A stretch of DNA of 64,000 nt from an uncultured delta proteobacterium (GCA_963735595.1 CAVTLK010000001.1:227008-291007); one strand, 5' to 3'. Shown: positions 197-59,729, counted from the first letter of the stretch. Notes: generated by a model not told the origin, from the letters alone. A program made the numbers and translations.

Positions 197-199
197 CCG

Positions 200-12625: not shown

Positions 12626-12723
12626 GGTGTGTCCTTTCCTCCAAGAGAGTGAAGTTCGGAGTGAGGGTATCCTGTTCTGCGGTAGATCAAAAGGAGATAC
12701 GGCGGCGGCCGATCAAGGCCCGA

Positions 12724-12970: not shown

Positions 12971-13027
12971 GTCGGAAATCCGATAGAGATGATGAATAGG
13001 GTATTGCCGTACTAATTGACCGTGCCG

Positions 13028-13426: not shown

Positions 13427-13536
13427 CTGTTGCCTCCTGTTACATCCATAGATGTCGCTACTATACCACATCCGTATCTACCGTGCAACGGCTTCGGAGA
13501 CATCCGGCCGTTTCGGGATCGGGGACGGCCGTCCAA

Positions 13537-15748
13537 TTATGGTTTGAGCGTTTTGTACACGAAGCTCTCCCATCGGCGTATATCCGAAGTATAGTAGGGT
13601 GAGTAACGGCGGTCCGAGGGACCGCCGGCAATGTCCGTGTGAATTGCCGTTTCGCCGAGGTCGGCAATTATCCGATACGACGGGGCGAAGCTCGTCAATC
13701 TACCTCCGGTCCTGAATATCTGCCCCTGGACGATGGTGGCCCGGTTGCCGGGAAGTTCGACGGGACCGAAATCAAAGCCAAGTATACGGGGGAGCTTACC
13801 GCCGAAGAAGAGGTTTGCCATGAGTACCTTATGAGTCCTGCCATACGCAACGGCCGGTCCCTTCAGGCCGCGGTGGATTGCCTTCTGGTACAGCTCCTGG
13901 CGGTTCTTATCTCCAAACCAGAGCGATTTCTTGGCCAGCAGGATGCGGTCAAAATTAATATAGAAGTCGTTGAAAAGCCCCGTCTCGGCGAGACAATAGT
14001 CGATAACGTCCCTGCCCATTTCGAGCTCGCCGAAGACGAGATCGAGGAGCGACGTATATACCCGTTCGAACAGGGTAGCTCCCAGCGACTCGGTGTCGTA
14101 ACAAAGGTCCCAGTCACGCAGGATTTTCCCGTTGGGTGTGTCGGGCAGGAGCGGCTCGATAATCTTCATGAAGTATTGAGCCTGGAGGGAATAGAGGTCG
14201 CTACTGGATCTTCTTCATCTCCTCCACGTCCAGCGGTGTCCGCTTTTTCAGGAGGTCTCTTATCCGGTCGCCGCGATAGCTTCCCATCGGAAGGTTCTGA
14301 ACGACAACCTTGGAAAGGTGTGAGAGATCTTCGTTGGCAGTGGCTACGTAACCCTCGGGAGGATTATAGCTCCGCGGGTAGCTCGTCGGCGGAACTGATG
14401 CCCTTCCACTGGTGAGACGGATCCCAGCCGAGGTAGGGCAGTAGACCCGAAGTACCTTTTTTCCGCTTCGGGAAGTTCCCGCTCATCTGATAGCCGATGT
14501 TACCGGCGGTATCGGCGGCAACCCAGTTGAAGGCCGCAAAGCTCAGACCCGCAAAACGGCTCATCGCTTCCTTGACGTTCTTTGACCTGGGGACTTTGAG
14601 GATACTTTCCATAGACTGTGCGACGTTTCCGCGACGGCCCGACCAGGCAAACGAGAGCCAGTAGCCGTCGGCGGTCGGTTCTCCCTCGAGTACCCCATTA
14701 TCGCTCTCGTAAAATCGCAGGGTGATAGGCGCCTTCTTCTTGGGCCGGATGACCTCCTCGCGAACGGCAAAGGGGACCCGCTTCTTACCGCGCAGGCATT
14801 TCTTGTTTACGACATCCTCGATAAAATAGTCGATCGTATCCATAAAACCGTACGTGACCGACCACGCCAGGGTTATTGGAGCGGCCAAGGACAACCGCCG
14901 GTATGCCGGGGAAGGTCGCCCCCATAACGTAAAAGTCTCCCGATACCAGTACGGCCTCGTACCATAACGGCGGGCAGGCGGTTGACTTCGAGGTGCGGGT
15001 CGCCGCAGAGGATAGGCTTCTTTGACCTGGAGCGTGCGCCGGACACGGCCCAGTTATTACTGGCCGAAAATCGGGTAAGGACCGATAGCCATTTGACGGA
15101 CTCGGGCACCACGGGATTGACAAGGTTGACCTGCTTAATGATTTCGGTGAGGGACTCTTTCGGGCGTTCCATCGAGGGGAACAGCTCCTTGAGCTTTTCT
15201 ACCGACACCCCCTTTCGGATCATCTGGATGATACCCTTTTCCATTTCTCCCTGGGATTGGGTAAGGCCGATAAATCCGATAATCCTGGACATGAGGACGA
15301 TATCCTCCGGCGTCCACGGGTCGGGCTTGTACCCAACCAGTTTGAACTCGAAGGGCACGCCCGAATCGGCGATTGCCTTGTTTGCGCCGGCGCAGTAGGC
15401 GCTCAGGACGGCCAGTGTCTCCTTGTTCATCTTCTTTAATTCTTGTTTGGCGTCACCGCCGAGGGAAATCCATCTCATATACGTATCGGCGGCGATCAGC
15501 TCTTCGTCGGCCTTTAGCTTTTCGGAGGCCCGCCCCTGGCCGATGAGCTTTACGAGCCACATCGCAAGCTGCCGGTCGGTTCCATGCATATAGCCCAGCC
15601 CCCAGTAGAGGTCGATCTCGTGATCGGCACTGATATGGGGCACTCCGCCGGCGATACGCTTGATGGTGACGTTCCCCTTGGTTCCGCGAAGAACCGTCTC
15701 GACATCAGTTATCTTCATGATTACTCCAACTATGGATAATATAGACAT
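13537..15748 (-). pseudogene. Penicillin amidase / acyl-homoserine-lactone acylase family Ntn hydrolase (~735 aa), fragmented by at least three frameshifts
   Basis: Alpha-subunit piece 15748-14873 (...HEIDLYWGLGYMHGTDRQLAMW...). Beta-subunit nucleophile SNNWAVSG. Further family pieces are at 15123-14785 (GDFYVMGATFPGIPAVVLGRSNNPGV), 14894-14364 and 14169-13537. Confidence 0.65.
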
Positions 15749-15942
15749 TATGTACCATTACGGGAATCGTATTTCAAGAGATTAAATAGGATTTCTGTAA
15801 ATACGCGCAGCATTCATACGCGTAAAACGGTCGGCGGTTCCTCCGTCAGTATCTCTTCTCAAATAAAGTTCAGGCGCAAGAATCGGATAGTCAGAATGGC
15901 CGCTCCCATATAGTATATAATAAAACTGTTGAGGTATGAGCT

Positions 15943-44076: not shown

Positions 44077-44907
44077 TCAGAGTGATTCCAGTTTTTTAGC
44101 GGCTGTCTCAGCCTGGGGCTCCTTTGGGTATTTCTTCACGATGTCGGAGAAGATCGTCCTGGCGTGTGCCGTATCGTTAAGCTCGAGGAATGCGAAACCC
44201 TCTTTGAGCATTGCGGCCGGAACCTTATCTCCCGAGGGGTATTTCTTGATAACCGTATCGTATTCAAGGATCGCCCGCTCGTACGATTTACGGGCGTAAT
44301 AGATCTCACCGATCCAGAATTGGGCGTTGTCGGCCAGCGACGAATCAGAGGAGCGCTCTATAAACGCCCTGAAGTCACGCTCGGCCCCGTCATAGTCCTT
44401 ATCCTGGAATTTCTTGTAGCCCGCGGCATAGAGATCCTCGGCTGTACGGCCGGCCCCGGAAGTGGGGGGCTCGTCCGTATCTCCGGGTACTGTGGTGCCG
44501 ATCTTGTCCGACGGGGGCGAGGTCCCGGACGGATCCGACGAAGACTTAATAGCGAGTTTATTCTCGACGGCCGATAGCCTGCGCTCGATGCTATAGAGGC
44601 GCGTCTCGATATCGGCGGTTGTCCTGTTGATAACCTCCTTCAGGACGGCGATTTCCTCGATCGCACGTTCGAACTCATACTGTTTTTCCTCGTAACTCCC
44701 CCGGATCTTTTTTACCTCTTCCATGACGGTATCATAATTAGCCCCGGATGTGGCCTTAGTATCCAGAGATGTCTTCTTGAGGATATCGACCTCGTCGTTC
44801 AACGAGCTGATCTGGCGCTGAAGATCTTCAATATTACCTGTTGTCACGCAGGACGAGATCAGGAATATACAAGAAAGTAATACGATACGTCCGTAGTAAG
44901 TTGACAT
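44077..44907 (-). CDS. ybgF: Tol-Pal system protein YbgF/CpoB-like (lipoprotein-type signal peptide, coiled coil, C-terminal TPR-like repeats)
   Basis: Reads MSTYYGRIVLLSCIFLISSC, a long coiled coil, then YAAGYKKFQDKDYDGAERDFRAFIERSSDSSLADNAQFWIGEIYY...YPSGDKVPAAMLKEGFAFLELND (YbgF-type repeats). Strong SD AAGGAGGT. Confidence 0.7.
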   Translation of the reverse strand: MSTYYGRIVLLSCIFLISSCVTTGNIEDLQRQISSLNDEVDILKKTSLDTKATSGANYDTVMEEVKKIRGSYEEKQYEFERAIEEIAVLKEVINRTTADIETRLYSIERRLSAVENKLAIKSSSDPSGTSPPSDKIGTTVPGDTDEPPTSGAGRTAEDLYAAGYKKFQDKDYDGAERDFRAFIERSSDSSLADNAQFWIGEIYYARKSYERAILEYDTVIKKYPSGDKVPAAMLKEGFAFLELNDTAHARTIFSDIVKKYPKEPQAETAAKKLESL

Positions 44908-45100
44908 CCCGACCTCCTTATAAAGAATCGTTCGTTTGACTATCGTCGTTCGATTGAATACGGTTTTATTATGAGCTATCGCTATTATACCGGGAACGAG
45001 GCTATCCATCAAGGCAAAATAAACGATAACTATTGACAACAGGCGGATTGATTGGGTACTATAAACCAACATGAAACGAATACTCGGGTTGAACATCTAA

Positions 45101-45697
45101 ATGATAGACTATAAAATAGTGTCCGATGATTCTCTCGTGGCGCAGGCTCAGAAAAAGGATTATCAGGCCTTTGAAGAGCTCGTGAAGCGCTATGAGGGTA
45201 AGATATATGGCCATACGTTGAGGATGGTTGGAAATCGAGAAGACGCGCAGGACGTATTGCAGGAGACGTTTCTTAACGTATTTAAGAGTTTAGAGAATTT
45301 TCGCGGTGATTCTTCGTTTTCAACATGGATTTACAGGATTGCGACAAACAATGCGCTGATGCGTTTGAGGAAGCTCTCCCATGCTGAACGCGAATTAAAC
45401 GATGAGCTCCCGCCTCCCGAATCGATGAAACGGCAAGCCCTGGCAAGCCATATACTTGATCCGAAGGATGCATTCCTCGAAAAAGAGATGCTGCGGGAGT
45501 TGGACAAGGCCGTGGAACGGCTGCCGGAAAAATACCGAACGATCTTCCTTCTCCGGGACGTGGAGGAGTTTTCCACCGAGAGGACGGCTACTGTCCTCGG
45601 CATTTCGGAGGCGGCTGTAAAATCCCGTCTTCATCGGGCTCGGCTTTTTATCCGGGAGGCACTGCTTAGGAAATTTGAGGGGAAGACGGAGTCGTAA
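45101..45697 (+). CDS. ECF (sigma-70 group 4) RNA polymerase sigma factor
   Basis: Region 2 (...DAQDVLQETFLNVFKSL) and region 4 (ISEAAVKSRLHRAR) are recognisable. Confidence 0.85.
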   Translation: MIDYKIVSDDSLVAQAQKKDYQAFEELVKRYEGKIYGHTLRMVGNREDAQDVLQETFLNVFKSLENFRGDSSFSTWIYRIATNNALMRLRKLSHAERELNDELPPPESMKRQALASHILDPKDAFLEKEMLRELDKAVERLPEKYRTIFLLRDVEEFSTERTATVLGISEAAVKSRLHRARLFIREALLRKFEGKTES

Positions 45698-45699
45698 AC

Positions 45700-45960
45700 A
45701 TGAACGAACATCACGAGTGCAAGGACTGCAAGAAGATATTCGAGAAGCTGTCGGAATACATCGATAAAGAGCTTAATGAAGAAGAATGCCTTGTATTCGA
45801 GGAGCATATCAGGAATTGTAAACCCTGCCTCGATTTTCTCGAAAGCCTTCACTGTACCATCAATCTCTGCAGGCGGCTTGACAATCAAGAGTCGTACCGA
45901 ATACCCCGTGACGTGAGCGTCCAACTGCACGAGTTCCTTAAGAAAGAATGCAAACTGTAA
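45700..45960 (+). CDS. Zinc-finger anti-sigma factor (ZAS family, RsrA-like)
   Basis: H-x3-C-x2-C motif (HIRNCKPC) plus an upstream Cys pair (CKDC). 86 aa, immediately downstream of the ECF sigma with a 2-nt gap. Confidence 0.7.
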   Translation: MNEHHECKDCKKIFEKLSEYIDKELNEEECLVFEEHIRNCKPCLDFLESLHCTINLCRRLDNQESYRIPRDVSVQLHEFLKKECKL

Positions 45961-47600: not shown

Positions 47601-48938
47601 TTGAAAGAGAGAAAGATCGCGGTTATCGGAATGGGATACGTCGGGATTCCCTGCGCGGCGCTTCTGGCCGATGTGCCGGGACATAACGTCATCGGGCTGG
47701 AGAAAGGATCAGACAGAAGTGCCTGGAAAATCGATACCCTCAATGCCGGCCTCTCGCCGATAGAGGGCGATGAACCGGGTTTGGCAGAGCTTCTGGGACG
47801 TGTCGTCGGGAAGGGATCGTTTCGCGCCACGGGAGACTACGCGGCGTTATCGGATCGTGACACGATCCTCATCTGTGTCCAAACGCCCACCGAGGGCGAT
47901 AATCATCGGCCCAGATACCTTGCGCTCAAAGATGCCGCAAAAGGAATCGGCGATAATTTGAAGACGGGGGCCCTTGTTATTACCGAGTCGACCCTTGCGC
48001 CCGGAACAACGGAGCACGTCATCAAACCGATCATCGAGCGTGCCTCCGGTCTCAAAGCGGGCAAAGATTTCTCCCTTGCGTATTCCTACGAGCGCCTGAT
48101 GCCGGGCCGCCTTATCCGTTATATCCAGGAGCTACCCCGCATCGTCGGGGGTATTGACACGGAAAGCGAACGCAGGGCGCGCGAGCTCTACGCTACGATA
48201 GTGAAGGCCCCCGTCCATACCACCGATGTCATGACGGCGGAGGCGACCAAGACCATCGAAAACGCCTACCGGGACGTGAACATAGCGTTTTCCAACGAAA
48301 TGGCACTCGTATGCGAGAGCCTCGGTATTAACGTATATGAGGTGCAACGGCTCATCAATACGCGATCCGAGCGGATGATGCACTATCCGGGAGCGGGCGT
48401 CGGCGGACACTGTCTTCCAAAGGATACGTGGCTTCTGCTCCATGGACTATCCATGTATGGTAAGCATGAAGTAAAGACCCACTTTGTTGAACTGGCACGC
48501 TCAATTAACGAATCGATGCCCGTTCACGTCTTTAGGCTCCTCGAGGATGCCTTAAGGCAAAAGGGAAGAGAATTCCCCGATGTCAAAGTAGCGCTTTTAG
48601 GCGTCGCGTATCTCGAGAACTCCGATGATACGAGGAACACCCCGGCATACGCTTTGATCGACCGGCTGGCCGCGTACGGGGCCGATATTATAGCGCACGA
48701 TCCGTACGTGACCATATTCCCGGAGGCGCGGCTGACCCATGATCTTGACGAGGCCATACGGGATGCCGATGCCCTCGTGATTATGACCAAGCATTCGCAG
48801 TACGATTCCATGAGCCTGGCAGATGCGGCAAAGGCCATGCGCACTCGCATAATCATCGACGGGAGAGACACGTTTGACCCTGATGATGCGCTGTCCGCGG
48901 GATTTTTCTATCGGGCTATAGGCAAAGGCACCGCCTAA
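47601..48938 (+). CDS. Nucleotide-sugar dehydrogenase (UDP-ManNAc / UDP-GlcNAc 6-dehydrogenase family, WecC/WbpA-like), paralog 1
   Basis: Reads IAVIGMGYVGIPCAALLA (N-terminal Rossmann), GGHCLPKD catalytic Cys motif, C-terminal UDP-binding domain. TTG start. Confidence 0.85.
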   Translation: MKERKIAVIGMGYVGIPCAALLADVPGHNVIGLEKGSDRSAWKIDTLNAGLSPIEGDEPGLAELLGRVVGKGSFRATGDYAALSDRDTILICVQTPTEGDNHRPRYLALKDAAKGIGDNLKTGALVITESTLAPGTTEHVIKPIIERASGLKAGKDFSLAYSYERLMPGRLIRYIQELPRIVGGIDTESERRARELYATIVKAPVHTTDVMTAEATKTIENAYRDVNIAFSNEMALVCESLGINVYEVQRLINTRSERMMHYPGAGVGGHCLPKDTWLLLHGLSMYGKHEVKTHFVELARSINESMPVHVFRLLEDALRQKGREFPDVKVALLGVAYLENSDDTRNTPAYALIDRLAAYGADIIAHDPYVTIFPEARLTHDLDEAIRDADALVIMTKHSQYDSMSLADAAKAMRTRIIIDGRDTFDPDDALSAGFFYRAIGKGTA

Positions 48939-49019: not shown

Positions 49020-50354
49020 GTGAAGAAAAAGATTGCCGTTGTTGGAATGGGGTATGTGGGAATACCGTGTGCCGCGTTGCTGGCCGACGTCGAGGGGTTT
49101 GACGTTACCGGTATACAGCGGAGATCACAGCGAAGCGGGTGGAAGATCGATGCCCTCAACTCGGGAAAATCACCGATAGAAGGGGACGAGCCGGGACTCG
49201 ATGAGCTTCTGACGCGGGTGGTCGGAAAAGGGAGTTTCCGGGTTACCGACGATTTCTCTGTAATCAAACAAATGGACGTTGTCCTTATTGACGTACAAAC
49301 CCCTACGGACGGCGCGGGACATGAGCCCCAGTATCTTTCTTTGAAAGAGGTTGCCAGGGAGATCGGGACATACATGAAGCAGGGTGTACTTGTCATAACC
49401 GAATCGACCGTTGCCCCGGGAACCACCGAACACGTAATCTGCCCGATTCTCGAGAGAAAATCGGGATTGCAGGCGGGCAAAGACTTCTCCCTGGCATATT
49501 CCTATGAGCGGGTTATGCCGGGAAAACTGATAGAATATATCGTGAATTTGCCCCGGATCGTCGGCGGTATCGATCCACAAAGCGAGAACAGTGCGCGGGA
49601 ACTCTATGCCACGATAGTGAAAGCAAAGATCCACACCACCGACGTCCTGACGGCCGAGACAACCAAGACCATTGAAAACGCCTACCGGGACGTGAATATA
49701 GCGTTTTCCAACGAGATGGCCCTCGTATGCGAGAGCCTCGGAATAAACGTATACGAGGTTCAGCAGCTCATTAATACGCGATCCGAACGGATGATGCACT
49801 ATCCTGGCGCGGGGGTGGGCGGACACTGCCTTCCCAAGGATACGTGGCTTCTTCTCTACGGACTCAATACGTACGGCTCAAAGAAGGTCCAAACGCATTT
49901 TGTGGAGCTCGCCCGGAGTATCAATGAATCAATGCCGAATCATCTGGTAAATCTCCTCTCCGAATGCCTGAAATCGCGCGGAAAAAGTTTCCCCGACTCA
50001 AAGGTAGTAGTCTTGGGTGTTGCGTACCTGGAAAACTCGGATGACACGCGTAATACGCCTGCCTATGATGTGGTGGCGCGTCTAATGGCCCACGGAGCCG
50101 AAGTCATTGCACACGATCCGTACGTACGCGAATTCCCTCAGGTTGAGCTCACCAGGGACCTCATAGCGGCGGCCCAAGACGCCGATGCCCTCGTCATAGT
50201 TACAAAGCACAAGGAGTACTATACGATGGACTTGGGAGCCCTCAAAAAGGTAATGCGGGATCATATAATCATTGACGGCAGAGACGTGATAAATCGGGCG
50301 TCGGCGCGCGCGGCGGGGTTCCTTTATCGAGGTATCGGAAAGGGTGGCGAATAG
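49020..50354 (+). CDS. Nucleotide-sugar dehydrogenase, tandem paralog 2 (roughly 70% identical to paralog 1 by eye)
   Basis: Reads IAVVGMGYVGIPCAALLA...GGHCLPKD. GTG start. Confidence 0.85.
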   Translation: MKKKIAVVGMGYVGIPCAALLADVEGFDVTGIQRRSQRSGWKIDALNSGKSPIEGDEPGLDELLTRVVGKGSFRVTDDFSVIKQMDVVLIDVQTPTDGAGHEPQYLSLKEVAREIGTYMKQGVLVITESTVAPGTTEHVICPILERKSGLQAGKDFSLAYSYERVMPGKLIEYIVNLPRIVGGIDPQSENSARELYATIVKAKIHTTDVLTAETTKTIENAYRDVNIAFSNEMALVCESLGINVYEVQQLINTRSERMMHYPGAGVGGHCLPKDTWLLLYGLNTYGSKKVQTHFVELARSINESMPNHLVNLLSECLKSRGKSFPDSKVVVLGVAYLENSDDTRNTPAYDVVARLMAHGAEVIAHDPYVREFPQVELTRDLIAAAQDADALVIVTKHKEYYTMDLGALKKVMRDHIIIDGRDVINRASARAAGFLYRGIGKGGE

Positions 50355-50519
50355 CCGGTTAACCGTTTGACAGATTACGGGGGTACGGTGATCGGAAGGG
50401 AATGGCCGACTTTTTAATAACGGCCCGAATTGTTATCTGATATTTACAATAAATGTATTATAAAAAATATAAATTATGCTAAATAGTAGAACAATAGTAC
50501 ATATATAACGAATTTTTTA

Positions 50520-50549
50520 TTGACATTGGTACTGCATATCTCGTAGAAT
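50520..50549 (+). promoter_or_regulatory. Sigma-70-like promoter in the AT-rich region upstream of the OMP / FecR-domain cluster
   Basis: TTGACA - 18 nt - TAGAAT. Flanked by a direct repeat TCGTAGAA x2. About 70 nt upstream of the start at 50621. Confidence 0.45.
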
Positions 50550-50620
50550 CTACCTATAGATTCGTAGAAAGGAAGAACGTTCCGGCCCCCCTCGCACCAA
50601 CCCCATGTAAGATTTAACGT

Positions 50621-52252
50621 ATGAAAAGAACGCTCGTAATTCTATCCTTTCTTGGCGTCCTATTTTCAATAGCGTTTCCCGCCTTTGCGATAAAATGGGA
50701 AGACGGCCGGCTTACAACAGACTACTCCGTTGATATCTATTATGAGAACGTGTACGGGAATGCCGATCGGTCCGTTCTTGACGTCGATCGCTCAACGAAG
50801 GACAATTGGCACTTCATGGAGGGCCTCAAGGTTCAACTTGAGCAGAAGATCGGTAATACATCAAAACTTGAATTGTTCTTTTATGGGAGACACACATCCG
50901 ACAAGCAAATCCAGGACGAGAGTGCGAAAATCCTGCAGGCCTATCTACGGATATACGGGGATAATTATGAAATATCCGTGGGAGACATCGGGGAGTACTA
51001 CACCAAATATACCTTTAATAATACCTTCCTTGGGGCGCGGGGATGGCTGAGACCGTTTTCCTCCCTGAGGATCATGCTGCTGGGCGGGAGAAATCGCGAG
51101 AGAGTTGACGATACGTACGAACACAACTTCGGCGGCGGCAGAATAGAATATTCCCCGAACCCGAGGTATATTTTCGGGACGACCTATATCCACTCGGAAA
51201 TCGCGAAGCTCTATACCGGCACGACTACTCTGGATTACAGCAACGACGTCTTTTCCGTCGATGCCCGGCTCAGGCTGCTGGATCGCAAGCTGTTGATCTT
51301 TGGAGAGGCAGCATTCAGCTGGTATACCGTAGACAGAAACGATCCTTCCGCCGATGAACCCACCGGGCGGGCGTTTAATCTCGAGATCGACTACCGTCCT
51401 ATTCAGTCGTTAAAACTTTCGCTTGATTACGAGTATGTGCGGCCGAACTTCATTACCGTCATGGGAAGCGCTCCAAGAGACCGCGAAACCGTCAAGGGAG
51501 AGGTTCGTTATTACCCGACGGATTCCTTGGATATATGGGCGAAATACCGGTTCACCGGAGACAAGCTGTCGGAGAGCTCACCACTTGCGTATAGAACGGA
51601 GACAAACTACTCGGAGATCGGCCTCATCTATAAGCCCTTCTTCATGGAAAAAGAGAGCTATTTCAGGAACCTCAAGTTCGACGTGAGGCTCGATTACACG
51701 AGGAGAGTTTCCATCAATGACCCGATGAGCGTAAACGACGGTCGTATCAGTACACGCCTGATTGTGACCAATCTCTACAATAAGATGCGGTATTCAGTAG
51801 AGTATGGATTCAGGTATACCGATGACTACGTTACAGGTACGCCCGATAGTATGCTCAATACGGTCGGCGCTAAATGGGGATACTCGTTTGCGGCGCTCGG
51901 GTTGGATTGGGACGTCGATCTTTTCGGAAAGGTTGATTTTATAACCACCTATGAGCCGGATGATATACTCTATGATACGGTTTCATCGTTTACGACCGGA
52001 ATAACCATCAGGCATTCACCGACTAATACCCTCCTGAGGATGTCGTATCTGGGCGTATTTTCGAGGATCGACAATGGGTACGACACCAACAAGAACGCCA
52101 CGGAGGTCTCTCTTGAGCAGGTCCTGTACGAGAACAAAGGGATTACCTCAATTCTCGGAATCAGCTATCGAAACCTTGATTTCCGGTCGGAAAACCACGT
52201 CGACAGCTACGGCGAAAACATCTACATGCTCAGTCTTACGTTACGCTTCTAA
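50621..52252 (+). CDS. Outer-membrane beta-barrel protein (hypothetical)
   Basis: Signal peptide MKRTLVILSFLGVLFSIAFPAFA. Alternating amphipathic beta-strand pattern, rich in Y/W/R/D. The C-terminal residue is Phe (LTLRF). Confidence 0.6.
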   Translation: MKRTLVILSFLGVLFSIAFPAFAIKWEDGRLTTDYSVDIYYENVYGNADRSVLDVDRSTKDNWHFMEGLKVQLEQKIGNTSKLELFFYGRHTSDKQIQDESAKILQAYLRIYGDNYEISVGDIGEYYTKYTFNNTFLGARGWLRPFSSLRIMLLGGRNRERVDDTYEHNFGGGRIEYSPNPRYIFGTTYIHSEIAKLYTGTTTLDYSNDVFSVDARLRLLDRKLLIFGEAAFSWYTVDRNDPSADEPTGRAFNLEIDYRPIQSLKLSLDYEYVRPNFITVMGSAPRDRETVKGEVRYYPTDSLDIWAKYRFTGDKLSESSPLAYRTETNYSEIGLIYKPFFMEKESYFRNLKFDVRLDYTRRVSINDPMSVNDGRISTRLIVTNLYNKMRYSVEYGFRYTDDYVTGTPDSMLNTVGAKWGYSFAALGLDWDVDLFGKVDFITTYEPDDILYDTVSSFTTGITIRHSPTNTLLRMSYLGVFSRIDNGYDTNKNATEVSLEQVLYENKGITSILGISYRNLDFRSENHVDSYGENIYMLSLTLRF

Positions 52253-52441
52253 GTTATGCCTGAACAATTCACATGATTCACGTGGCGGATTTCGGTACGT
52301 TTTCCCTGTTTATGATACAAATGTTCCGTAAACCGATTATATAGTTACGCGTTGCTTATTCATTTCTTAATACGGCTGATAGGGTAATATCCCACGGCGG
52401 GTATTTTCAGCTATTCAAGAGATTATATATCGATACCGGGG

Positions 52442-54183
52442 ATGACTGATATGAAACCGATGCTTAAGTCCGTGAAGGCTATCGCGTGCTTCGGGTTGCT
52501 TTTATCGGTTGTTATTGGCCTTAATTCCGCCGAGGGGCAGGTAGGCAACGGGGCATCGGTTATTGCCGTCAACGGATTCGTAGACGTCAAGTTCAAGGAT
52601 AAGGGCCTATTTGTACCGCTTGAAGAAGGCATGATGCTTGGCGTCGGCGATACCATTGAAACGGATACCGAAGGGGAGGCCGAATTGCGGCTGGCCGATA
52701 AGAGCATCCTGAAAATCGGCCCCTCGTCGCGCGTCCTTATCAAGGAGCTGGGTACACTTGAAGTAACCAGGGTCTCCGTCACAACCTTCGAGCTGATCAA
52801 GGGGAAAATACGGGCCGTTGTTTCCCCGCTCATCAATGATAAATCCCGCTTTACCATAGAAACGACGAATGCCACCGTGGGTGTGAGAGGCACGGATTTC
52901 GTGGAAAGCTTTGATCCTGATACCGAGTCAACCTACGTTATCGGCTTGGACGACTGTGTCTCGCTGTCTTTCAGGAATACCCCCGGCAGCGCCCCCGTTT
53001 CGATCTGTGGAACAGAAGAGCTGACGGTAAAGGGGCGAGGAGCGCCCGGATTACCGTCGAAGGCATCAAAGGAAACAATAGACCGGACACTCCGTGAGAT
53101 GGGGTTGACGGGAGAAAAAGGCGGAGAGCTGGGAAAAGTCAGGGGAGCCCCGTATATCACCGGCATCTTCGTTAATCGGACAATAGATCTTGAACGCGTC
53201 GAAGGGTTGCTCACGCTCACGCGGGACGATCTTTCCGTAGAGAGAAAGATACTACTCAGCGGGCGGTCAAAAGACGATGTCGGACGCGTCGTATCCGTTG
53301 AGGTGAGCCTCGATGGAGGAGCGACATTTGAAAAGGCGACCGGCACGGAAGACTGGACATACGAGTTCGAGCCGCGCGAGAATAGGGAATACGAAGTCAT
53401 GGTACGTGCCGCGAACGATGCGGGTCTTGGTTCCGATCCCCGCGATATGGGACGGATTGCGATCGCGTTCAAAGACGATAGCTATGATGACGTCGCCCGT
53501 TCATTTATCGAGGCCTTCGTCAACGGTATCAGGACCGGGGATAGCCGGGCCGTCGAGGGCAACATTACTGATGGTTACGACGGGGCGGTGGGAGGATTCT
53601 ATTCAAGGGATGATCTCTATACAGTCCGGTATAGAAGACCTTTCCGGCTATACGAGCGGGACCACCATCAGCTACACGATAGACCAGGTCAGCTCGCTGG
53701 GAGACAGGATTGTGGTGGTGACCGGATGGTCCGTGACATCGGGCACGACAAACGACCACGGGAAAACGACGTGGTGGCTCTCGAAATCCGATGACTTCAG
53801 GCTTTCTCATGCGGAAGGGGATTGGTTGTTGCGGTCGATAGCAACGGTGGAACCGGCGCTTTGGATCGATTTTTACGATAATGGCATGGGGCCGCCCTGC
53901 AATAAGGTCGCGCGAGTGTTCTTGAGGGCGCCTAACATCCCGGATTCGGTACTATTCGTCCAGGTGCAGGTTGAGACGTCGTGCGGCCCGGTGAACCTGT
54001 TCGTTGATCGGTGGTACTATGAGGCGTATGTGGGTGATGAGAACGGATTCGGGAGCGACGTTCCGTTAGAAACGATGATATCGGCATGCGTAGCGCCATC
54101 GTGCGGTGTAGTTCGTACCGCCATTCGATCCCAATCTCAATTGCACTTTTACCGATTATGGCTATGATCTCAGTACGGACTAA
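52442..54183 (+). CDS. Secreted FecR-domain protein (~580 aa) with a Cys-containing C-terminal domain, paralog 1; two apparent frameshifts
   Basis: Signal peptide, then the FecR-like fold (GDTIETD...A-L-L-D-S-L-I-P...TTNATVGVRGTDF). The C-terminal half continues in the 53313-54167 frame (WWLSKSDDFRLSHAEGDW...GPPC...) and finishes as ...TDYGYDLSTD* at 54183. Confidence 0.6.
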
Positions 54184-54310
54184 CGATACCGTAGGGAAAT
54201 AGTCCGATGTATTGAAAAAGGCCTGATGGGAAACCGGACCATCCGAACCCGAGAGCTCGGAGGTGTACAATGACTATAATGATGAACGACAATCGGAAAG
54301 GAGACTTACC

Positions 54311-56051
54311 ATGACACGACGGATCAGACCTATAAGGGCTGCCGGACTCGTCTCTCTGTTGCTGGTCGTCATGAGCCTTACGTCGACCGGTGCTCAGAAT
54401 CCCGTTGATGCGCTCGTAGTCTCCTCGGAAGGGTATGTAGACGTTAAATTAAACGGTACGGACAAATTCGTTCCTCTCGTTGAGGGAACGGGGCTTAGTG
54501 TCGGCGATATCATCCAGACAGACAGCGAAGCGAAAGTTGTCTTATGGCTCCCCGATAAAAGCACGCTCATAATCGGTGAGAACAGCCGGGTCGTAATTAA
54601 GGAACTGGGGATGGTCGAGCTGACTAAGGTATCCGTAAGCACGTTCGAGATCATCAAGGGGAAGATTAGGGCTATTGTCAATCCCTTTATCAATACGGAA
54701 TCCACCTTCATGATAAAGACCAACAACGCGACGGTCGGCGTGCGCGGCACGGACTTTGGAGAGGCATATGATCCCGATACCGATCGGACATATATCCTGG
54801 GTCTGGAGGATTGCGTATCGTTGACGCTCGCGAAGATCCCGGGGAGTGCTCCCATTTCGATATGCGCGGGAGACGAACTAACGATCCTTGGCGGTCAACA
54901 GCCCGGCCTGCCAAAAGGGGCGTCACGTGCGACAATAAACGAGTTTATCGAGGAGATGAACGCTGCCGAAACGCCGGGGACTTCTGAGGAGATACCCCCC
55001 CCGTATATTACGAGCCTATTCATCAATAGGGTGATCAATCTCCAGGACATTGACGGAACGCTCACCCTTACACAGGGTGATCTCTCCATTGACAAGAACG
55101 TAGTCATCAATGGGACGGCCGTAGACGAAGCCTATACGGTAACAGAGGTCGAGGTAAGCCTTGACCGGGGGACAACCTGGGAAAAGGCCTCGGGTACGGC
55201 GAACTGGGCCTACGAGTTCCGGCCGCAGGAAAGGATAGAATATGAGCTAATGGTAAGGGCAAAAAACGATAAAGGCGCCGTTTCCGATACCGGTGAGCTT
55301 GGGAGCTGGGTCATTGTCTATCTGGACCAGGATTATGAATCGATAGCACGCTCGATGATAGATAAGCTTTTTGCGGCCGTCTTAGACGGGTGACTCGACG
55401 GGTGACGATCTGATTTCCGATTATTATGACGGCGTTATCGATAACGTCTATACCAAGTCGGAGGTCGTCGATAAGATAGCGGGTTCGAATAGCAACGTAA
55501 CGGCCGGTTATACGCTCAATCAGATTAACTCCACCGGTGACGCGATAATCGCGACGATTAGCTGGTCGTCGACCGTCAATGGGAGAAAGGACGACGGAAC
55601 CACAAAGTTCTGGCTCGCGAAGTCAGATGAATTCAGGATTACCCACTCGGAAGGCACCTGGTTCCTGATGAGCTCACGGACGCCCGAATTGAAGCTTGAG
55701 GTTGTTTCAAGTATCTATGGCCCCCCATGCGAAAACGCGTTGCGTATACTGCTCGTAGTGCCGGACGTTCCGGCGAATGTTCCCTCGGTTATCGTATTTC
55801 CTATCACGACATGCGAAAGCACTCATTTCGCCATTCTGACTCGGGCGGGTTTCGAGGACATGACCGGAGAAACGGATGGTTTTGGCGGTGATTTCCACTA
55901 CGAGAAAACCACCGGGTGTACGGCGTCGGGCGGCCCCCCGTGTGCGGGGACGATTCCGTTTCTCTATCAGGATTTGAACCCGCTCGTTACCGTCAACTAC
56001 ACAGACTACGGGTATAATCTATCGGCAAGCACGATGTTGCCGTCGCCGTAA
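54311..56051 (+). CDS. Secreted FecR-domain protein, tandem paralog 2; one frameshift at ~55386 in a GGG run
   Basis: SD AAGGAG. Signal peptide. FecR core (GDIIQTD...TNNATVGVRGTDF). After the stop at 55391-55393 the frame-0 read-through TGDSTGDDLISDYYDGVI...FWLAKSDEFRITHSEGTW... joins ORF 55668-56051 (...GPPC...TDYGYNLS). Confidence 0.6.
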
Positions 56052-56099
56052 AACGGTTCGACAACCAATTGCTTGCTTGCAGTGTGATTAAAGCGAGAC

Positions 56100-56540
56100 A
56101 TGAGACCGATACAAGGCAAACGAACCGCGAGCCTTACGAAGCTCCCTCTGGGGACGGCTTTTCTTGTCATAGCCATTGTTTTGGTTGGATACACGGTATC
56201 ATTCGGACAGGAGAATCCAGGGAGTATCGAACTCGGGATAATAGGGACGCTCAATCTCTATCCGGTGCTGCCGGAGGAGGGAGACGACGTCGTGATAGGC
56301 GTTCTCGTCGCTAACCGGGGCGTAAAAGACGCCCGGGACGTGGCGGTCTATTTCTATGAAGATGATGTCTATTTTGAGAAGGTAACGGTAGATATACGGG
56401 CGGGTGATACCGTGTATGTCGAGGCGGATTGGATTGCGGACTCGGGGGACAGCTATATCTCGGCAATCGTCGACCCTAATCGGGTATACGCCGAAGATAG
56501 GCGTGATAATGGGGCGAATGCGTGGGTGACGGTTCGGTAG
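56100..56540 (+). CDS. CARDB-domain (cell-adhesion-related) secreted protein
   Basis: Signal/TM segment, then VVIGVLVANRGVKDARDVAVYFYEDD...VDIRAGDTVYVEADW...AIVDPNRVYAEDRRDNGAN, the CARDB pattern. Confidence 0.65.
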   Translation: MRPIQGKRTASLTKLPLGTAFLVIAIVLVGYTVSFGQENPGSIELGIIGTLNLYPVLPEEGDDVVIGVLVANRGVKDARDVAVYFYEDDVYFEKVTVDIRAGDTVYVEADWIADSGDSYISAIVDPNRVYAEDRRDNGANAWVTVR

Positions 56541-56697
56541 GGTGATAACACGGAACACAGAGCGTTTTTTTCTTGCAATCTGCCGATTGCGGTGATATAA
56601 ATGTTCAATGTTTATAGACCGCATTACATATAATGCGGTCTTGGGCTTTTTGGAATAAGATGTCTATGGGAATGAATAAAAAAGGAAGGAGAATTTA

Positions 56698-57210
56698 ATG
56701 AAGAGACTGAGTTTTGTTGTGGCAATTATTTTCGTTCTCTCTTTATCGCTTTCGGTTTACGCTGCCGACGTAAAAGTGGGTGTCCTTGATCTTATGAAGG
56801 TTATCGACCTGTCCGCGCAGGGCAAGAAGGCTAAAGACGAGATGAACGTGAAGATCAAGGCCGCAGAGACCGAAGTGAAAAAGAAACAGGACGAAATACT
56901 CAGGATGAAGGCTGACATTGAGAAGCAGGCCCCTATGCTTTCGGCCTCGGCGCTTGCCGATAAGAAGAGGGCGTACGAAGACAAAGTCCTGGATTTCCAG
57001 CGGATGGTTCAGGATTATGAGTATGAATTACAGCAGAAGGACTTCGAGCTTGCGCAGGTAATCCTGACTCAAACGAAAGACATTATCGATAAGATCGGCA
57101 AGGAAGAAGGATATACCATTATCCTTGAGAGGACGAATTCGGCGGTTCTTTATTTCCCGGCAAGCGCCGATATAACCGATAAGGTTATCAAGGCACTCAA
57201 CGCGAAGTAG
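56698..57210 (+). CDS. skp: Periplasmic chaperone Skp (OmpH family)
   Basis: Signal peptide, then a long Lys/Glu-rich coiled-coil arm. 170 aa. Reads VGVLDLMKVID. Confidence 0.8.
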   Translation: MKRLSFVVAIIFVLSLSLSVYAADVKVGVLDLMKVIDLSAQGKKAKDEMNVKIKAAETEVKKKQDEILRMKADIEKQAPMLSASALADKKRAYEDKVLDFQRMVQDYEYELQQKDFELAQVILTQTKDIIDKIGKEEGYTIILERTNSAVLYFPASADITDKVIKALNAK

Positions 57211-57232
57211 TAGCTGTAGAAAAATTGATACG

Positions 57233-57263
57233 TAAAAAAACCCGCCTAGGCGGGTTTTTTTTT
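57233..57263. terminator. Bidirectional intrinsic terminator (14-bp perfect palindrome flanked by an A-run and a T-run)
   Basis: AAAAAAACCCGCCTAGGCGGGTTTTTTTTT. Confidence 0.8.
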
Positions 57264-57319
57264 GGCGTGAAATAGAGATTGCGGATACGTAATAGGAATG
57301 AAATCCTTCCCGGGAAGAC

Positions 57320-57730
57320 TTATTCACAGGTAAAAGGGTAGGGACTTGCGGTATCGGTTAAGTCGTTAAAGACGTTCCATGGTTCACGGCTGCAATCGGT
57401 CACAACCCAGACATCGTCTATGTTATCGTGATCAAGGTCTGCCGAGCAGCTGGCGGTGAAATGGAAAGCTGTCGCCGGAAATATTGAGGTACCAGTTCCT
57501 ATAATATTTCGGCTCAGAGGCAGGTCGAAACGCGATTTGTTCGTAATTCCGGCATATACGGAGTGTTCGGCGAAGTACGTACCTCACTTCCGTAGACGCC
57601 GGTAAGCAGGATTCGCGCCTCGGACTGTCTCGACTTATTCTGGAAGCTCATATAATTAGGAATAGCGATGGCGGCAAGGATCGCTATGATTGCCACAACG
57701 ATCATCAGCTCAATCAGGGTAAACCCGGAT
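57320..57730 (-). CDS. Type IV pilin / pseudopilin-like protein; has an internal frameshift (~57590) and no in-frame ATG before the leader
   Basis: Reads ...[46 protein letters not shown] (class III signal, G-1, E+5). After the frame change it reads ...[17 protein letters not shown]...[22 protein letters not shown]...FTCE*, a C-terminal disulfide loop. Confidence 0.5.
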
Positions 57731-58033
57731 ACGGAATTTTCGGAGTCTGGTTCGATAGGTATTATAGTGTCATAGGACTTATTAATAAAGCAAATAGTAT
57801 GCCATATGGTGCCGGAGGTCTTCCCTGTGGCGCGATCCTACAACATATTGCGATCATTATCTTTTTTATCTTCGGGACATGATATCCAGGATTGAAACTG
57901 ATAGCCGTATGGACGGACTGATATATGACAAAACTGTAACTATGCCTTTGCAATATCGCAATTATAATTGTATTGAACGTTGTGAGACAGACATTAAGGA
58001 GATAGTATAGGTAGTTAAAACATAAAAAAAGTC

Positions 58034-58063
58034 TTGACATACGATTCGCTATTACGATAGTAT
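58034..58063 (+). promoter_or_regulatory. Sigma-70-like promoter of the trp leader transcript
   Basis: TTGACA - 18 nt - TAGTAT. Confidence 0.45.
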
Positions 58064-58093
58064 TACGCTCAAAATGTAATCGTAAGGAATGTA

Positions 58094-58177
58094 ATGAAGC
58101 GGACACGTACGGTAATCGAAAAGAAAAATTGGGTGTGGCGTATCCACATAGGTGATTTGGTGCGCCCAATAGGTTGA
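58094..58177 (+). CDS. Trp-codon-containing leader peptide (27 aa, MKRTRTVIEKKNWVWRIHIGDLVRPIG), a transcription-attenuation leader for trpB2
   Basis: SD AAGGAA lies 5 nt upstream. Two Trp codons sit in a W-V-W cluster. The stop lies 6 nt before the first terminator hairpin. Confidence 0.5.
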   Translation: MKRTRTVIEKKNWVWRIHIGDLVRPIG

Positions 58178-58183
58178 GTAATA

Positions 58184-58258
58184 GGCCGTGGGCGGCCAAA
58201 GTCGCCCACGGCTTTTTTGTTTTTACAGCAGGCCGTGAATAGCTCACGGCCTTTTTTT
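58184..58258 (+). terminator. Two tandem rho-independent terminators (attenuator) between the leader peptide and trpB2
   Basis: GGCCGTGGGCGgccaaagtCGCCCACGGCTTTTTTGTTTTT, then GGCCGTGAatagcTCACGGCCTTTTTTT. The upstream segment GCGCCCA (58162-58168) can alternatively pair with TGGGCG of the terminator 5' arm (antiterminator), and ATTGGG (58128-58133) can pair with CCCAAT (58165-58170). Confidence 0.6.
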
Positions 58259-58364
58259 ATCGAAAAGGGGGTGATTGCCGCATGAGGCACCGGTGGAATT
58301 GAAGGAATATGAGAAGTCATAATTTATAGACATAGGTAGCGAAACAACCAAAACGGAGAAGAAA

Positions 58365-59729
58365 ATGACTGACAAGATAATCACCCTGTCCAGGAGCGAA
58401 ATGCCGACGAAATGGTACAATATCGTCCCTGACTTCCCGGTCCCGATGAAACCGGTCCTCAGCCCGCAAACCCTGCAGCCTGCAACTCCCGACGATTTTG
58501 CGCCGATCTTTCCGATGTCGATTATCGAACAGGAAATGAGCGACCAATCCTATATCACGATTCCCGATGAAGTCATGGAAGCTTATTCCCTTTATCGGCC
58601 GACGCCGCTGGTGCGCGCCACCAGGCTCGAGAAACTACTCGATACGCCGGCCCATATATATTTCAAAAACGAGAGTGTGTCTCCTGCGGGATCTCATAAA
58701 CCTAATACGGCCATCCCCCAGGCGTTTTACAACAAGAAGGCCGGGATGAAGCGGATGGCTACGGAGACGGGCGCCGGACAGTGGGGCAGCGCCCTTTCAT
58801 TTGCCGGGTCCCTCTTCGGGATTGATGTAACGGTATATATGGTGAGGATATCGTTCGATCAGAAACCGTACCGTAAATCGATGATGCAAACCTGGGGAGG
58901 CACCGTATATTCCAGCCCGAGCGATAAAACGGAGGTGGGACGAGCGATCCTGAAGGATAATCCAAACACTAACGGGACGCTTGGAATGGCCATCTCGGAG
59001 GCGGTTTTTGATGCAGCGACACATCCCGATACCAATTATTCCATCGGCAGTGTCCTGAACCACGTCTGCATGCACCAGACCATCGTGGGGCAGGAAGCCA
59101 TGCTCCAGATGAAAAAGGCCGGTGAATACCCGGACGTTATTATTGGGTGTGTCGGCGGCGGGAGCAATTTTGCGGGAATTTCCTATCCCTTCTTACGGGA
59201 GAAAATCAAGGGCAACAAGAATCCCGAGGTTATCGCGGTAGAACCGTTTTCGTGTCCTACCCTCACAAAGGGTGTCTATGCGTACGATTTCGGTGATACG
59301 GCGATGGTAGCGCCGGTTGCGTATATGCACACGCTTGGGCATACGTTTGAGCCCCCCGGAATACACGCGGGTGGATTACGATACCACGGGATGGCCCCCA
59401 CGATATGCCTCCTCTATGATCAGAAGCTCATGAATGCGGTGGCGGTACATCAGAACGCCTGTTTTGAGGCGGCCATGATGTTCGCGCGAACCGAAGGGAT
59501 CATCCCGGCGCCGGAGTCATCGCATGCGATCAGGGTAGCGATCGATGAGGCGCTCAAGGCGAAGAAAGATAAAAAGGAGAAGGTCATCCTATTCAACCTG
59601 TCAGGACACGGGCATTTTGACATGGTGGCGTACGATAAATACTTCGCCGGACAATTGGAGGATTACGAGTACCCCTCCGAAAAGATTAAAGAGGCCCTCT
59701 CACATCTCCCGAAAGTCAAGGTTATGTAA
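58365..59729 (+). CDS. trpB: TrpB2-type tryptophan synthase beta-chain-like PLP enzyme
   Basis: 454 aa. Reads ...[16 protein letters not shown] (PLP Lys motif)...[11 protein letters not shown]...PESSHA, with the TrpB2 N-terminal extension. SD GGAG. Confidence 0.8.

Follow-up and report, generated by a model that had tools for sequence, protein, structure and literature searches.

An envelope gene cluster encoding a predicted plug-less outer-membrane barrel and exported FecR-domain proteins in a narrow group of uncultivated bacteria

The gene cluster at 50400-57263 of a 64,000-nucleotide window from an uncultured delta proteobacterium (GCA_963735595.1, CAVTLK010000001.1:227008-291007) is a genuine but fairly ordinary envelope operon that occurs only in a narrow set of uncultivated bacteria (Table 1). 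The gene order given by the original prediction, an outer-membrane protein (OMP), two tandem FecR-domain paralogs (P1 and P2), a CARDB protein and Skp, was recovered with all elements at or near the claimed positions. Our tentative preferred reading, given a probability of roughly 0.4, is a lineage-restricted envelope operon of a barrel, zero to two docked FecR accessories and a CARDB protein, with frame breaks that are more likely assembly errors. A strong, conserved sigma-70 promoter drives a predicted plug-less barrel, followed by zero to two (here two) Sec-exported accessory proteins and then by the CARDB protein. The FecR-type domain may dock each accessory protein onto the co-encoded barrel, by analogy with the periplasmic domain of FecR on FecA and with the 26-strand barrels LptD and MtrB, which hold LptE and MtrA, and the fast-evolving distal domains would be left free to bind a ligand or surface.

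Table 1. Coordinates of the features of the cluster, counted from the first nucleotide of the window.
Feature	Position	Strand	Remarks
AT-rich spacer with sigma-70-type promoter	50400..50620	+	A/T-rich tract upstream of promoter; ~70-nt leader
-35 element, TTGACA	50520-50525	+	
-10 element, TAGAAT	50544-50549	+	
OMP, 543 aa	50621..52252	+	Signal peptide; ~26 predicted strands; C-terminal ...LTLRF
FecR paralog P1, 580 aa repaired	52442..54194	+	From ORFs, three-frame translation and Pfam; unrepaired first frame (450-aa truncated product) ends at 53794
P1 indels	53618 (+1); 54111, 54119, 54175 (-1)		
FecR paralog P2, 580 aa repaired	54311..56051	+	Architecture as P1
P2 indel	55385 (+1)		One extra G
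CARDB protein, 146 aa	56100..56540	+	N-terminal hydrophobic segment; one CARDB domain (PF07705)
Hairpin between CARDB gene and skp	56616..56641	+	11-bp hairpin, then T-run; -18.5 kcal/mol, z -5.2
Skp/OmpH chaperone, 170 aa	56698..57210	+	Periplasmic; PF03938
Intrinsic terminator	57233..57263	.	A-run, CCCGCC/GGCGGG stem, T9; -18.9 kcal/mol, z -3.7

The spacer upstream of the OMP gene was AT-rich and carried a near-consensus promoter, as originally described, with a GC content of 0.33 at 50400-50599 and ~0.52-0.54 in the flanks. Other intergenic spacers were similarly low in GC (0.37 at 56600-56799 and 0.335 at 57900-58099), so this composition is typical of spacers in this genome. The promoter (TTGACA-18 nt-TAGAAT, 50520-50549) matched the consensus at 11 of 12 positions, and the TTGAC and TAnAAT hexamers, together with the upstream A/T tract, were kept in nine aligned loci, down to 46-52% OMP identity. 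All cluster genes were co-oriented in the ORF listing, and the gaps between the OMP, FecR and CARDB genes, scanned for terminator-like sites, contained none, the first strong hairpin with a T-run of the operon lying 3' of the CARDB gene. This hairpin, also present in related locus L002 with a 1-nt loop difference, is probably a terminator or attenuator that ends the OMP operon. The strong terminator expected 3' of skp was confirmed, its stem being followed by nine T, and could be active in both directions. An Rfam search of 50000-58400 gave no match.

The domain assignments of the last two genes held, with PF07705 matched by the CARDB protein (E 3e-9, 37.4 bits, gathering score 22.7) and PF03938 by Skp (E 6e-29, 101.4 bits, gathering score 32.4, profile positions 1-141 of 141); the inclusion of Skp in the system probably does not. 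The CARDB gene was found downstream in every related locus that was long enough, FecR-less loci included. Skp is probably a housekeeping neighbour outside the system, since a strong hairpin and T-run separate its gene from the CARDB gene, and since it is 96.5% identical to its orthologue in related locus L001, compared with only 54-74% for the OMP, FecR and CARDB proteins.

The 543-aa OMP had been put forward as a beta-barrel, and its AlphaFold2 model (pLDDT 86.5) comprised 26 beta-strands, with no plug, periplasmic domain or N-terminal signalling domain; a signal peptide was present. Structure comparison aligned MtrB over 402 residues, with LptD also among the matches, and a PDB profile search with the OMP alignment gave no match at E-values up to 1. 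DUF6029 (PF19494) was matched by 9 of 20 OMP homologues (best E 1.7e-5, 24.1 bits, below the gathering threshold of 27 bits), in a colinear alignment of OMP residues 130-259 with profile positions 131-263 of 538, and the Pfam search with the window OMP itself gave no match to this family. Judged by the model, the OMP is predicted to be a large plug-less barrel of ~26 strands; it may be distantly DUF6029-like. When metagenomes were scanned for remoter relatives of the OMP, only five loci were returned.

The repaired P1 and P2 proteins (44% identity) shared one architecture, consisting of a signal peptide, FecR domain, Ig-like domain, NTF2-like domain and Cys-rich beta-sandwich. The anticipated N-terminal FecR-type domain scored above the gathering cut-off of 24 bits in both (PF04773; E 2.8e-12 and 47 bits in P1, E 1.9e-10 and 41 bits in P2), beginning at about residue 35, right after the ~30-aa signal peptide, with no other N-terminal Pfam match; the FecR-region model was poorly predicted at residues 98-146. 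Big_7 was matched in P1 (E 0.003), and Pfam searches of 36 homologues matched FecR in all 36, Big_7 in 32 and DUF4440/SnoaL in 11. The '~300-aa C-terminal domain' of the original prediction exists as a region and resolves into three domains instead of one: the Ig-like domain, the NTF2-like domain and a Cys-rich beta-sandwich of ~120 aa. Foldseek comparison of the whole FecR-family model with the PDB was dominated by matches to the Ig-like and NTF2 domains. The third domain showed the alpha+beta cone fold of the NTF2-like superfamily, with a potential ligand pocket; Pfam matches bearing on the NTF2-like enzymes (SnoaL, ketosteroid isomerase, scytalone dehydratase) were weak and scattered. The Cys-rich beta-sandwich, presumably disulfide-bonded, can occur four to five times over in relatives and is repeated in P0035 and P0087, and the GPPC, TSCGP/TTCES and DYGY(D/N)LS motifs were present as reported, their cysteines and the YGY being invariant or nearly so across the 36 homologues. 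Each FecR-family protein is a Sec-exported string of binding-type modules. A PDB profile search with the FecR-family alignment gave weak Ig-like, NTF2 and retention-module matches only, and no FecR/PupR structure. Stand-alone secreted FecR-domain proteins are indeed poorly characterised, the closest named relatives (Lsa33/LipL45) being distant; the architecture was not described in literature retrieved on FecR with LipL45, on FecR with CHASE2, or on FecR domain-containing proteins with beta-barrels.

All full-length FecR-family relatives came from MAGs of uncultured 'delta proteobacterium', Thermodesulfobacteriota or Zymogenus, and the NTF2 and Cys-rich module was represented by 16 of 1.84 billion cluster representatives. 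In 15 loci, with OMP identity as low as 46%, an OMP gene lay directly upstream of a full-length FecR-family gene, the sole exception among loci with enough upstream sequence being L010, with a lone FecR gene and no OMP gene. In L007, where all genes upstream of the OMP gene differ, OMP-FecR adjacency persisted, with a gap of 5 nt. The FecR copy number in related loci was two, one or zero (L089 and L090), and the P1-type copy has been lost in L001 and L008. Since it varies while the OMP, CARDB and skp genes stay together, the FecR proteins are accessories, and we infer that they are most likely associated with the barrel. The pairing is not obligate, given the FecR-less L089 and L090 and the OMP-less L010, and synteny is weakened as evidence of a functional link because the genomes are mostly close, with the whole 20-kb neighbourhood colinear. 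Many short (~210-300 aa) proteins with a signal peptide and FecR domain occur across Proteobacteria, and the ORF layout around three of these FecR-only proteins (neighbours unannotated) showed no consistent arrangement.

Frame breaks were placed against L002, whose locus is 93% identical at the nucleotide level and carries both FecR genes intact (581 and 579 aa). All three regions flagged earlier (53.6-53.8 kb, ~54.11 kb and 55,386) were confirmed and exactly placed, and a fourth P1 indel, absent from the earlier list, was added (54175, -1). About 40 FecR-family homologues were intact. From sequence comparison, errors in the consensus of a long-read MAG are a likelier source of the breaks than genuine pseudogene formation, a reading favoured because the window contains further broken genes (pilin, penicillin amidase and probably a CCG-domain gene), because the -1 indels fall at GTAC, because relaxed selection is not apparent and because the relative is intact. 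All -1 indels and the pilin break lay within 6 nt of a GTAC, against only 4.1% of window positions; the two +1 indels did not. P1 and P2 showed no sign of relaxed selection: differences from L002 were mostly at third codon positions, amino-acid changes were not in excess in the window lineage (14 versus 18 for P1; 9 versus 9 and 4 versus 16 for P2), and no in-frame stops were found beyond those caused by the shifts. Five 1-nt reversions restored orthologue-like sequence and fully conserved motifs, up to the conserved ...TIP stop. Three P1 indels fell where identity to L002 is only 63-78%, a setting in which the consensus of mixed strains is prone to error. The length of the source contig (1.08 Mb) was counted toward a long-read assembly artefact, as was the finding that several full-length relatives are MAGs of the Microflora Danica project, for which Nanopore sequencing was employed.

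That the breaks are instead real, with the organism losing its FecR accessories and other exported proteins (pilin, penicillin amidase) by pseudogenisation, is possible but doubtful. The breaks are concentrated (four in P1, one in P2, one in the pilin gene and at least two in the penicillin amidase gene), with fourteen neighbouring genes intact relative to L001; three to five indels in 3.5 kb exceed the window-wide rate of ~8 in 64 kb (binomial P ~0.01), and long homopolymers are not involved in any of them. Given the loss of the P1-type copy in L001 and L008, P1 may plausibly be undergoing real decay. It is opposed by the selection pattern, by the return of conserved motifs on single-base reversion, by the association of deletions with GTAC, by the divergent P1 segment and by the break in the probable CCG-domain gene, which has no export-associated domain match. 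The breaks are not special to the FecR genes and, with several at GTAC, should be taken as biology only on the strength of reads.

For the function of the cluster, FecI/FecR-type trans-envelope signalling with an ECF sigma factor encoded 4.7 kb upstream is extremely improbable. The FecR domain and the synteny of the ECF sigma gene (45101-45697) in most relatives are consistent with it, yet it already fails on its defining features. P1 and P2, checked by Pfam and modelling, had no transmembrane helix and no cytoplasmic anti-sigma domain; the model contained a single N-terminal helix (residues 3-24), in agreement with the earlier view that a signal peptide is present and a transmembrane anti-sigma segment is not. 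Lacking any part that spans the membrane or lies in the cytoplasm, they cannot be anti-sigma factors of the FecR type. The companion claim that no sigma factor is adjacent stands in that none is directly adjacent, and needs qualifying for the ECF sigma/zf-HC2 pair in the window (anti-sigma gene at 45694-45960, same strand). This pair is self-contained, the sigma gene overlapping that of its own zf-HC2 partner, so the FecR proteins are not made anti-sigma factors by it. The OMP has neither the plug nor the N-terminal signalling domain of such a system, its promoter is of sigma-70 and not ECF type, and in L007 the cluster is unchanged, with no such pair called in the 10 kb upstream of it. ECF-type control of the OMP operon was rejected, the conserved promoter being sigma-70-like. 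The genes may also be unlinked neighbours, the OMP being an abundant general porin and the FecR-family proteins independent periplasmic accessory sensors, like LysM-FecR proteins (COG4254) with CHASE2 kinases, which we regard as unlikely. The strength of the promoter and the closeness of skp would be accounted for by an abundant porin, and highly expressed OMP genes typically have, as here, a near-consensus promoter preceded by an A/T-rich tract. The OMP-CARDB-Skp loci without FecR (L089, L090), a lone FecR paralog elsewhere in one MAG and the wide occurrence of short signal-peptide-FecR proteins in Proteobacteria point the same way, and stand-alone exported LysM-FecR proteins have been described paired with CHASE2 sensor kinases (PMC5192318). 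Against this, neither the genes scanned near the cluster nor the Pfam annotations of related loci included a CHASE2 or other sensor gene, and OMP-FecR adjacency is kept to 46% OMP identity and in L007 despite its new upstream context. Known general porins have 16-18 strands, far fewer than the 26 predicted here.

Improbable, too, is a polysaccharide role, with the OMP as a plug-less Wzi/DUF6029-type barrel exporting or anchoring a glycan made with the upstream UDP-sugar dehydrogenases, and the FecR-Ig-NTF2 and CARDB proteins as periplasmic or surface glycan-binding accessories. The colinear DUF6029 match in 9 of 20 OMP homologues argues for it, as do the HHpred link (PMC9603273) between DUF6029 and Wzi-like plug-less barrels with OPX genes in their vicinity and the one or two UDP-glucose/GDP-mannose-dehydrogenase-family genes that precede the OMP gene in the window and most relatives. 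These dehydrogenase genes, however, lie upstream of the OMP's own promoter, none was called there in L003, and unrelated genes take their place in L007; the DUF6029 scores are sub-threshold, with no match for the window OMP, and no OPX, Wzx/Wzy, chain-length (PCP) or glycosyltransferase gene was found at ~41.7-61.7 kb or in the Pfam tables of related loci.

Beyond the preferred reading of a barrel with docked FecR accessories, the proteins might form an undescribed outer-membrane two-component complex, with the FecR domain in or under the barrel (compare LptDE, MtrAB and the retention module), the Cys-rich domains displayed on the surface and the NTF2 pocket binding a small ligand, an extension by analogy that we hold to be rather unlikely. 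The sensing or trapping role suggested in the original prediction is a candidate function. Should barrel and FecR-family protein indeed associate in a complex, FecR domains would serve generally as OMP-docking modules beyond sigma-factor signalling, and a lineage without cultured members, Desulfobacterota-like, would have yielded a new barrel-plus-partner architecture and a novel means of surface display or of capturing ligands. The present value lies in a clean map of the domains in a protein family that is uncharacterised and has a very narrow distribution, and in a promoter backed by conservation across relatives.

Among known proteins, the best named matches to P1 and P2 (residues ~12-170) were the envelope-associated LipL45 and Lsa33 of Leptospira (NF033165, NF047849), which likewise run straight from a signal sequence into a FecR domain and lack transmembrane and anti-sigma parts. 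These models gave 30-48 bits, against cut-offs of 350 and 420 bits, over the FecR region only; they span 310-391 positions, with no counterpart in the match for the Ig-like, NTF2-like and Cys-rich part, and the window proteins lack a lipobox. We know of no dedicated upstream barrel for the Leptospira proteins. PF04773 is also common to P1, P2 and the FecR/PupR anti-sigma regulators, and in TonB-dependent cell-surface signalling the FecR domain is periplasmic and contacts an outer-membrane protein; unlike in those systems, there is here no cytoplasmic anti-sigma domain, transmembrane helix, adjacent FecI or TonB-dependent transducer with a signalling domain. LysM-FecR proteins (COG4254, PA4035-like) are similarly stand-alone exported FecR accessories in an operon with an envelope partner, whereas P1 and P2 have no LysM, no CHASE2 kinase or response regulator lies nearby, and the partner gene is an OMP gene.

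The first beta-domain of P1 and P2 (residues ~34-100) weakly resembled the LapA/MpIBP RTX adhesin retention modules: the LapA-type model NF033682 (cut-off 50 bits) reached E 5e-5 and 23.5 and 15.4 bits, and the retention-module PDB entries 5ix9 and 5irb matched the FecR-family alignment at E-values of 0.16 and weaker. The adhesin module serves to keep its protein at an outer-membrane channel; here, neither type I secretion genes nor RTX repeats were seen. DUF6029, the function of which is itself conjectural, is similar in length to the OMP (538 profile positions), with its colinear sub-threshold match given by OMP homologues and not by the window OMP. LptD-LptE and MtrB-MtrA, built on 26-strand barrels, are comparable to the predicted OMP in strand number and barrel size, and, as with the OMP, the barrel itself has no plug and an exported partner is encoded alongside.

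Both tandem paralogs, P1 and P2 (44% identical), scored above threshold for FecR PF04773 (E 2.8e-12 and 1.9e-10, respectively), and the FecR call of the original prediction was thereby borne out by profile search. Around 40 intact homologues of 576-597 aa each were found, and the domain map of the family was drawn from Pfam, fold searches and a structure model of P0001, a family protein 95% identical to P2 (36 homologues, mean pLDDT 75.6). This map replaced the single ~300-aa C-terminal domain described originally with three modules, Ig-like, NTF2-like and Cys-rich. For the Ig-like domain, Foldseek picked out the dimerisation domain of sulfite oxidase and the periplasmic sensor domain of BT4663, and no family match was obtained for the Cys-rich beta-sandwich. 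Neither an anti-sigma domain nor a transmembrane helix was present in the P1/P2 architecture, the lack of an anti-sigma transmembrane segment having been recognised at the outset. In two family members, P0035 (951 aa) and the partial P0087 (785 aa), the Cys-rich domain occurs in four to five tandem, adhesin-stalk-like copies, each ending ...LP.

Features of the operon, its upstream sigma factor locus and the FecR-family proteins (window coordinates, or residues where stated)
Feature	Position	Strand	Properties
BamD/YfiO-like TPR lipoprotein gene	44077-45096		divergent from ECF sigma gene
ECF sigma factor	45101-45697	+	upstream of operon
zf-HC2 anti-sigma	45694-45960	+	88 aa; overlaps ECF sigma gene
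OMP	50621-52252	+	543 aa; signal peptide; C-terminal end ...LTLRF
P1	starts 52442	+	580 aa after frame repair (three-frame translation)
Indel, P1	53618		extra T; not within 6 nt of GTAC
Indel, P1	54111		1-nt deletion; within 6 nt of GTAC
Indel, P1	54119		1-nt deletion; within 6 nt of GTAC
Indel, P1	54175		1-nt deletion; within 6 nt of GTAC
P2	starts 54311	+	580 aa after frame repair (three-frame translation)
Indel, P2	55385		extra G; not within 6 nt of GTAC
CARDB protein	56100-56540	+	146 aa; CARDB domain E 3e-9
Hairpin between CARDB gene and skp	56616-56641		11-bp stem, then T-run; -18.5 kcal/mol, z -5.2
Skp/OmpH	56698-57210	+	170 aa; E 6e-29
Terminator	57233-57263		-18.9 kcal/mol, z -3.7
Signal peptide, FecR family	residues 1-~30
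FecR-type beta domain	residues ~34-200		stretch 98-146 poorly predicted
Ig-like domain	residues 232-337		Big_7 in 32/36 homologues; Foldseek matches
Cys-rich beta-sandwich	residues 459-575		four conserved cysteines; conserved YGY...P end

With the NTF2 and Cys-rich part as query, exhaustive phmmer searching returned only 16 cluster representatives in 1.84 billion. Full-length relatives were found only in Microflora Danica uncultured 'delta proteobacterium' MAGs, Thermodesulfobacteriota and Candidatus Zymogenus (GTDB, one genome per species), with one family protein labelled Candidatus Dadabacteria; at the remaining loci of the genome scan the match was limited to the FecR region, and those inspected encode short FecR-only proteins. 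The family is uncharacterised, very narrowly distributed and assembled from known binding-type modules, and nothing in it or its operon indicates an unusual mechanism.

The five genes spanning 50400-57263 share one orientation on the + strand. Across related loci, the usual order was a BamD-like gene (minus strand), ECF sigma and zf-HC2 anti-sigma, a thioredoxin-reductase-like gene, 0-2 UDP-sugar dehydrogenases, the predicted outer-membrane beta-barrel protein (OMP), one or two FecR-family genes, CARDB, skp and a pilin (minus strand). At locus L007 a wholly different set of genes lies upstream, yet OMP-FecR-CARDB-Skp is retained, with an OMP-FecR gap of 5 nt; by tblastn, wherever a full-length FecR-family gene had enough sequence before it, OMP lay directly upstream, bar a lone copy at L010. 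In a neighbour-joining tree, the P1/P2 duplication falls within the clade and the P1-type copy was lost in L001 and L008, and the related loci L089/L090 encode at 5001-8830 an OMP (49% identical), a 284-aa CARDB-domain protein and two tandem skp copies, with no FecR-family gene. FecR copy number therefore varies from 0 to 2 against a constant OMP-CARDB-Skp. These loci show a conserved operon in which a barrel and a CARDB protein are encoded together with 0-2 exported FecR-Ig-NTF2-Cys-rich proteins. Tandem paralogous UDP-glucose/GDP-mannose-dehydrogenase-family genes occupy 47601-48938 and 49020-50354 in the window; two copies occur in L002 and a JGI 43-kb contig, one in L001/L005, and none was called in L003. 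The most distant OMP homologue, P0062 (34% identical; JGI sample 3300075153, 8.2-kb contig), is followed 3' by a 626-aa protein without a Pfam match and then a Peptidase_C14 (caspase-like) gene.

GC content was 0.33 in the spacer 50400-50599 against about 0.52-0.54 in the flanks, and TTGACA-18 nt-TAGAAT at 50520-50549 was the sole 11/12 promoter match across the 7-kb region. Alignment of 280 nt 5' of the OMP start from the window and eight related loci showed that the -35 TTGAC, the -10 TAnAAT and an upstream A/T-rich tract are kept even at 46-52% OMP identity, which supports the promoter across relatives; it is of the sigma-70 rather than the ECF type. The AT-rich spacer and near-consensus promoter described originally are present, but other spacers of the same genome are similarly AT-rich, so the supposed AT 'island' is normal intergenic composition. 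No sigma factor adjoins the operon, as had been stated, but 4.7 kb before it, in the same orientation, lies an ECF sigma/zf-HC2 pair, separated from the operon by three genes and OMP's own sigma-70 promoter. This pair is self-contained, and its arrangement with the BamD/YfiO-like gene is conserved in most relatives. Its presence does not turn the FecR-family proteins into anti-sigma factors: the sigma has its own zf-HC2 partner, three genes intervene, and no pair was called in the 10 kb upstream of OMP in L007. The operon is not a FecIR signalling device.

At the 3' end, both the CARDB and the Skp domains were confirmed, and the predicted terminator folds well. Identity to the L001 orthologues was 96.5% for Skp versus 74% for OMP, 66-68% for the FecR proteins and 54% for the CARDB protein; because of this difference, and of the hairpin separating the CARDB gene from skp, the latter is probably a slowly evolving housekeeping neighbour, not a dedicated component.

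The frameshifts suspected in both paralogs were placed against L002, 93% identical over 11.2 kb with both FecR genes intact, giving four indels in P1 and one in P2. Assembly or consensus error is the favoured explanation. Counted towards it were the five-base reversion, which yielded orthologue-like sequence as far as the conserved ...TIP stop; the substitution pattern, with window-L002 differences mostly at third codon positions and no window-lineage excess of amino-acid changes (14 vs 18 for P1; 9 vs 9 and 4 vs 16 for P2); other broken genes; GTAC within 6 nt of the three P1 -1 indels and the pilin break, true of only 4.1% of window positions; the position of the three P1 deletions in a segment with identity to L002 down from about 95% to 63-78%; the supply of several full-length relatives by Microflora Danica MAGs, a Nanopore-sequenced project; and the 1.08-Mb NCBI/ENA contig as source of the window proteins. 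True pseudogenisation of P1/P2 is the less likely reading: indels are concentrated in few genes and relatives dispense with the P1-type copy, as real decay would have it, but breaks also occur in the pilin, penicillin amidase and probably CCG-domain genes.

The pilin-like gene (57323-57726, minus strand; 142 aa, intact in L001 and L007) runs in two frames, with the break near 57580 inside GGTACGTAC. The penicillin amidase (PF01804) gene at 13537-15757 (minus strand) is spread over no fewer than three frames, with separate ORFs matching profile positions 1-203, 232-398 and 481-666, and at 7106-8327 (+) the overlapping ORFs 7106-7888 and 7722-8327 probably represent one broken gene, the second beginning partway through a CCG cysteine-rich domain, of whose 85 profile positions it covers 36-85. 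Three ORFs without a Pfam match at 12302-13477 (minus strand; 12302-12712, 12713-13027 and 13028-13477, stop-to-stop in one frame) may each be a small gene, or together a single gene interrupted by in-frame stops. The -1 indels relative to intact relatives (54111-54175, 57575-57583) lie at GTAC, which is also under-represented in the window (169 observed vs about 245 expected from base composition); methylation of the motif, leading to systematic errors in the consensus, or its being a target of restriction-modification may lie behind this. At 53740-54540 and 55940-56340, covering the P1 Cys-rich domain, P1-P2 spacer, P2 signal peptide and CARDB gene start, identity to the otherwise ~95%-identical L002 drops to 63-83%, and window P1 there looks nearer the family protein P0022 than the L002 orthologue; this stretch suggests recombination or strain mosaicism.

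For OMP, sequence searches against Pfam and PDB gave no match. An AlphaFold2 model built from 20 homologues (pLDDT 86.5, pTM 0.71) consisted exclusively of 26 beta-strands, which, with the signal peptide and C-terminal end, upheld the original barrel assignment; since the model holds nothing more, OMP is a predicted plug-less barrel, lacking a periplasmic domain. A rival reading takes it as a polysaccharide-related DUF6029/Wzi-like barrel: a colinear DUF6029 (Pfam) match was found in 9 of the 20 homologues (residues 130-259 aligned with positions 131-263 of the 538-position profile), its top score of 24 bits falling slightly short of the 27-bit cut-off, and one paper (PMC9603273) connects DUF6029 through HHpred with Wzi-like barrels that lack a plug and are encoded close to genes for polysaccharide export. 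Another makes the genes unlinked neighbours, a major porin and independent periplasmic FecR accessory proteins, like LysM-FecR/CHASE2 sets (PMC5192318).

Overall, the observation behind the original prediction was confirmed, and its interpretation was partly supported. The closest named relatives of P1/P2 are Leptospira Lsa33 and LipL45, at scores far under those families' cut-offs, and the first beta-domain of the FecR-family proteins weakly resembles LapA/MpIBP adhesin retention modules. As proposed here, the FecR-type domain would dock the accessory protein onto the co-encoded barrel, and the fast-evolving distal modules would bind ligand or surface. Docking is suggested by analogy with the FecR-FecA contact and with LptD and MtrB, 26-strand barrels that house partner proteins, OMP being likewise predicted to have 26 strands.
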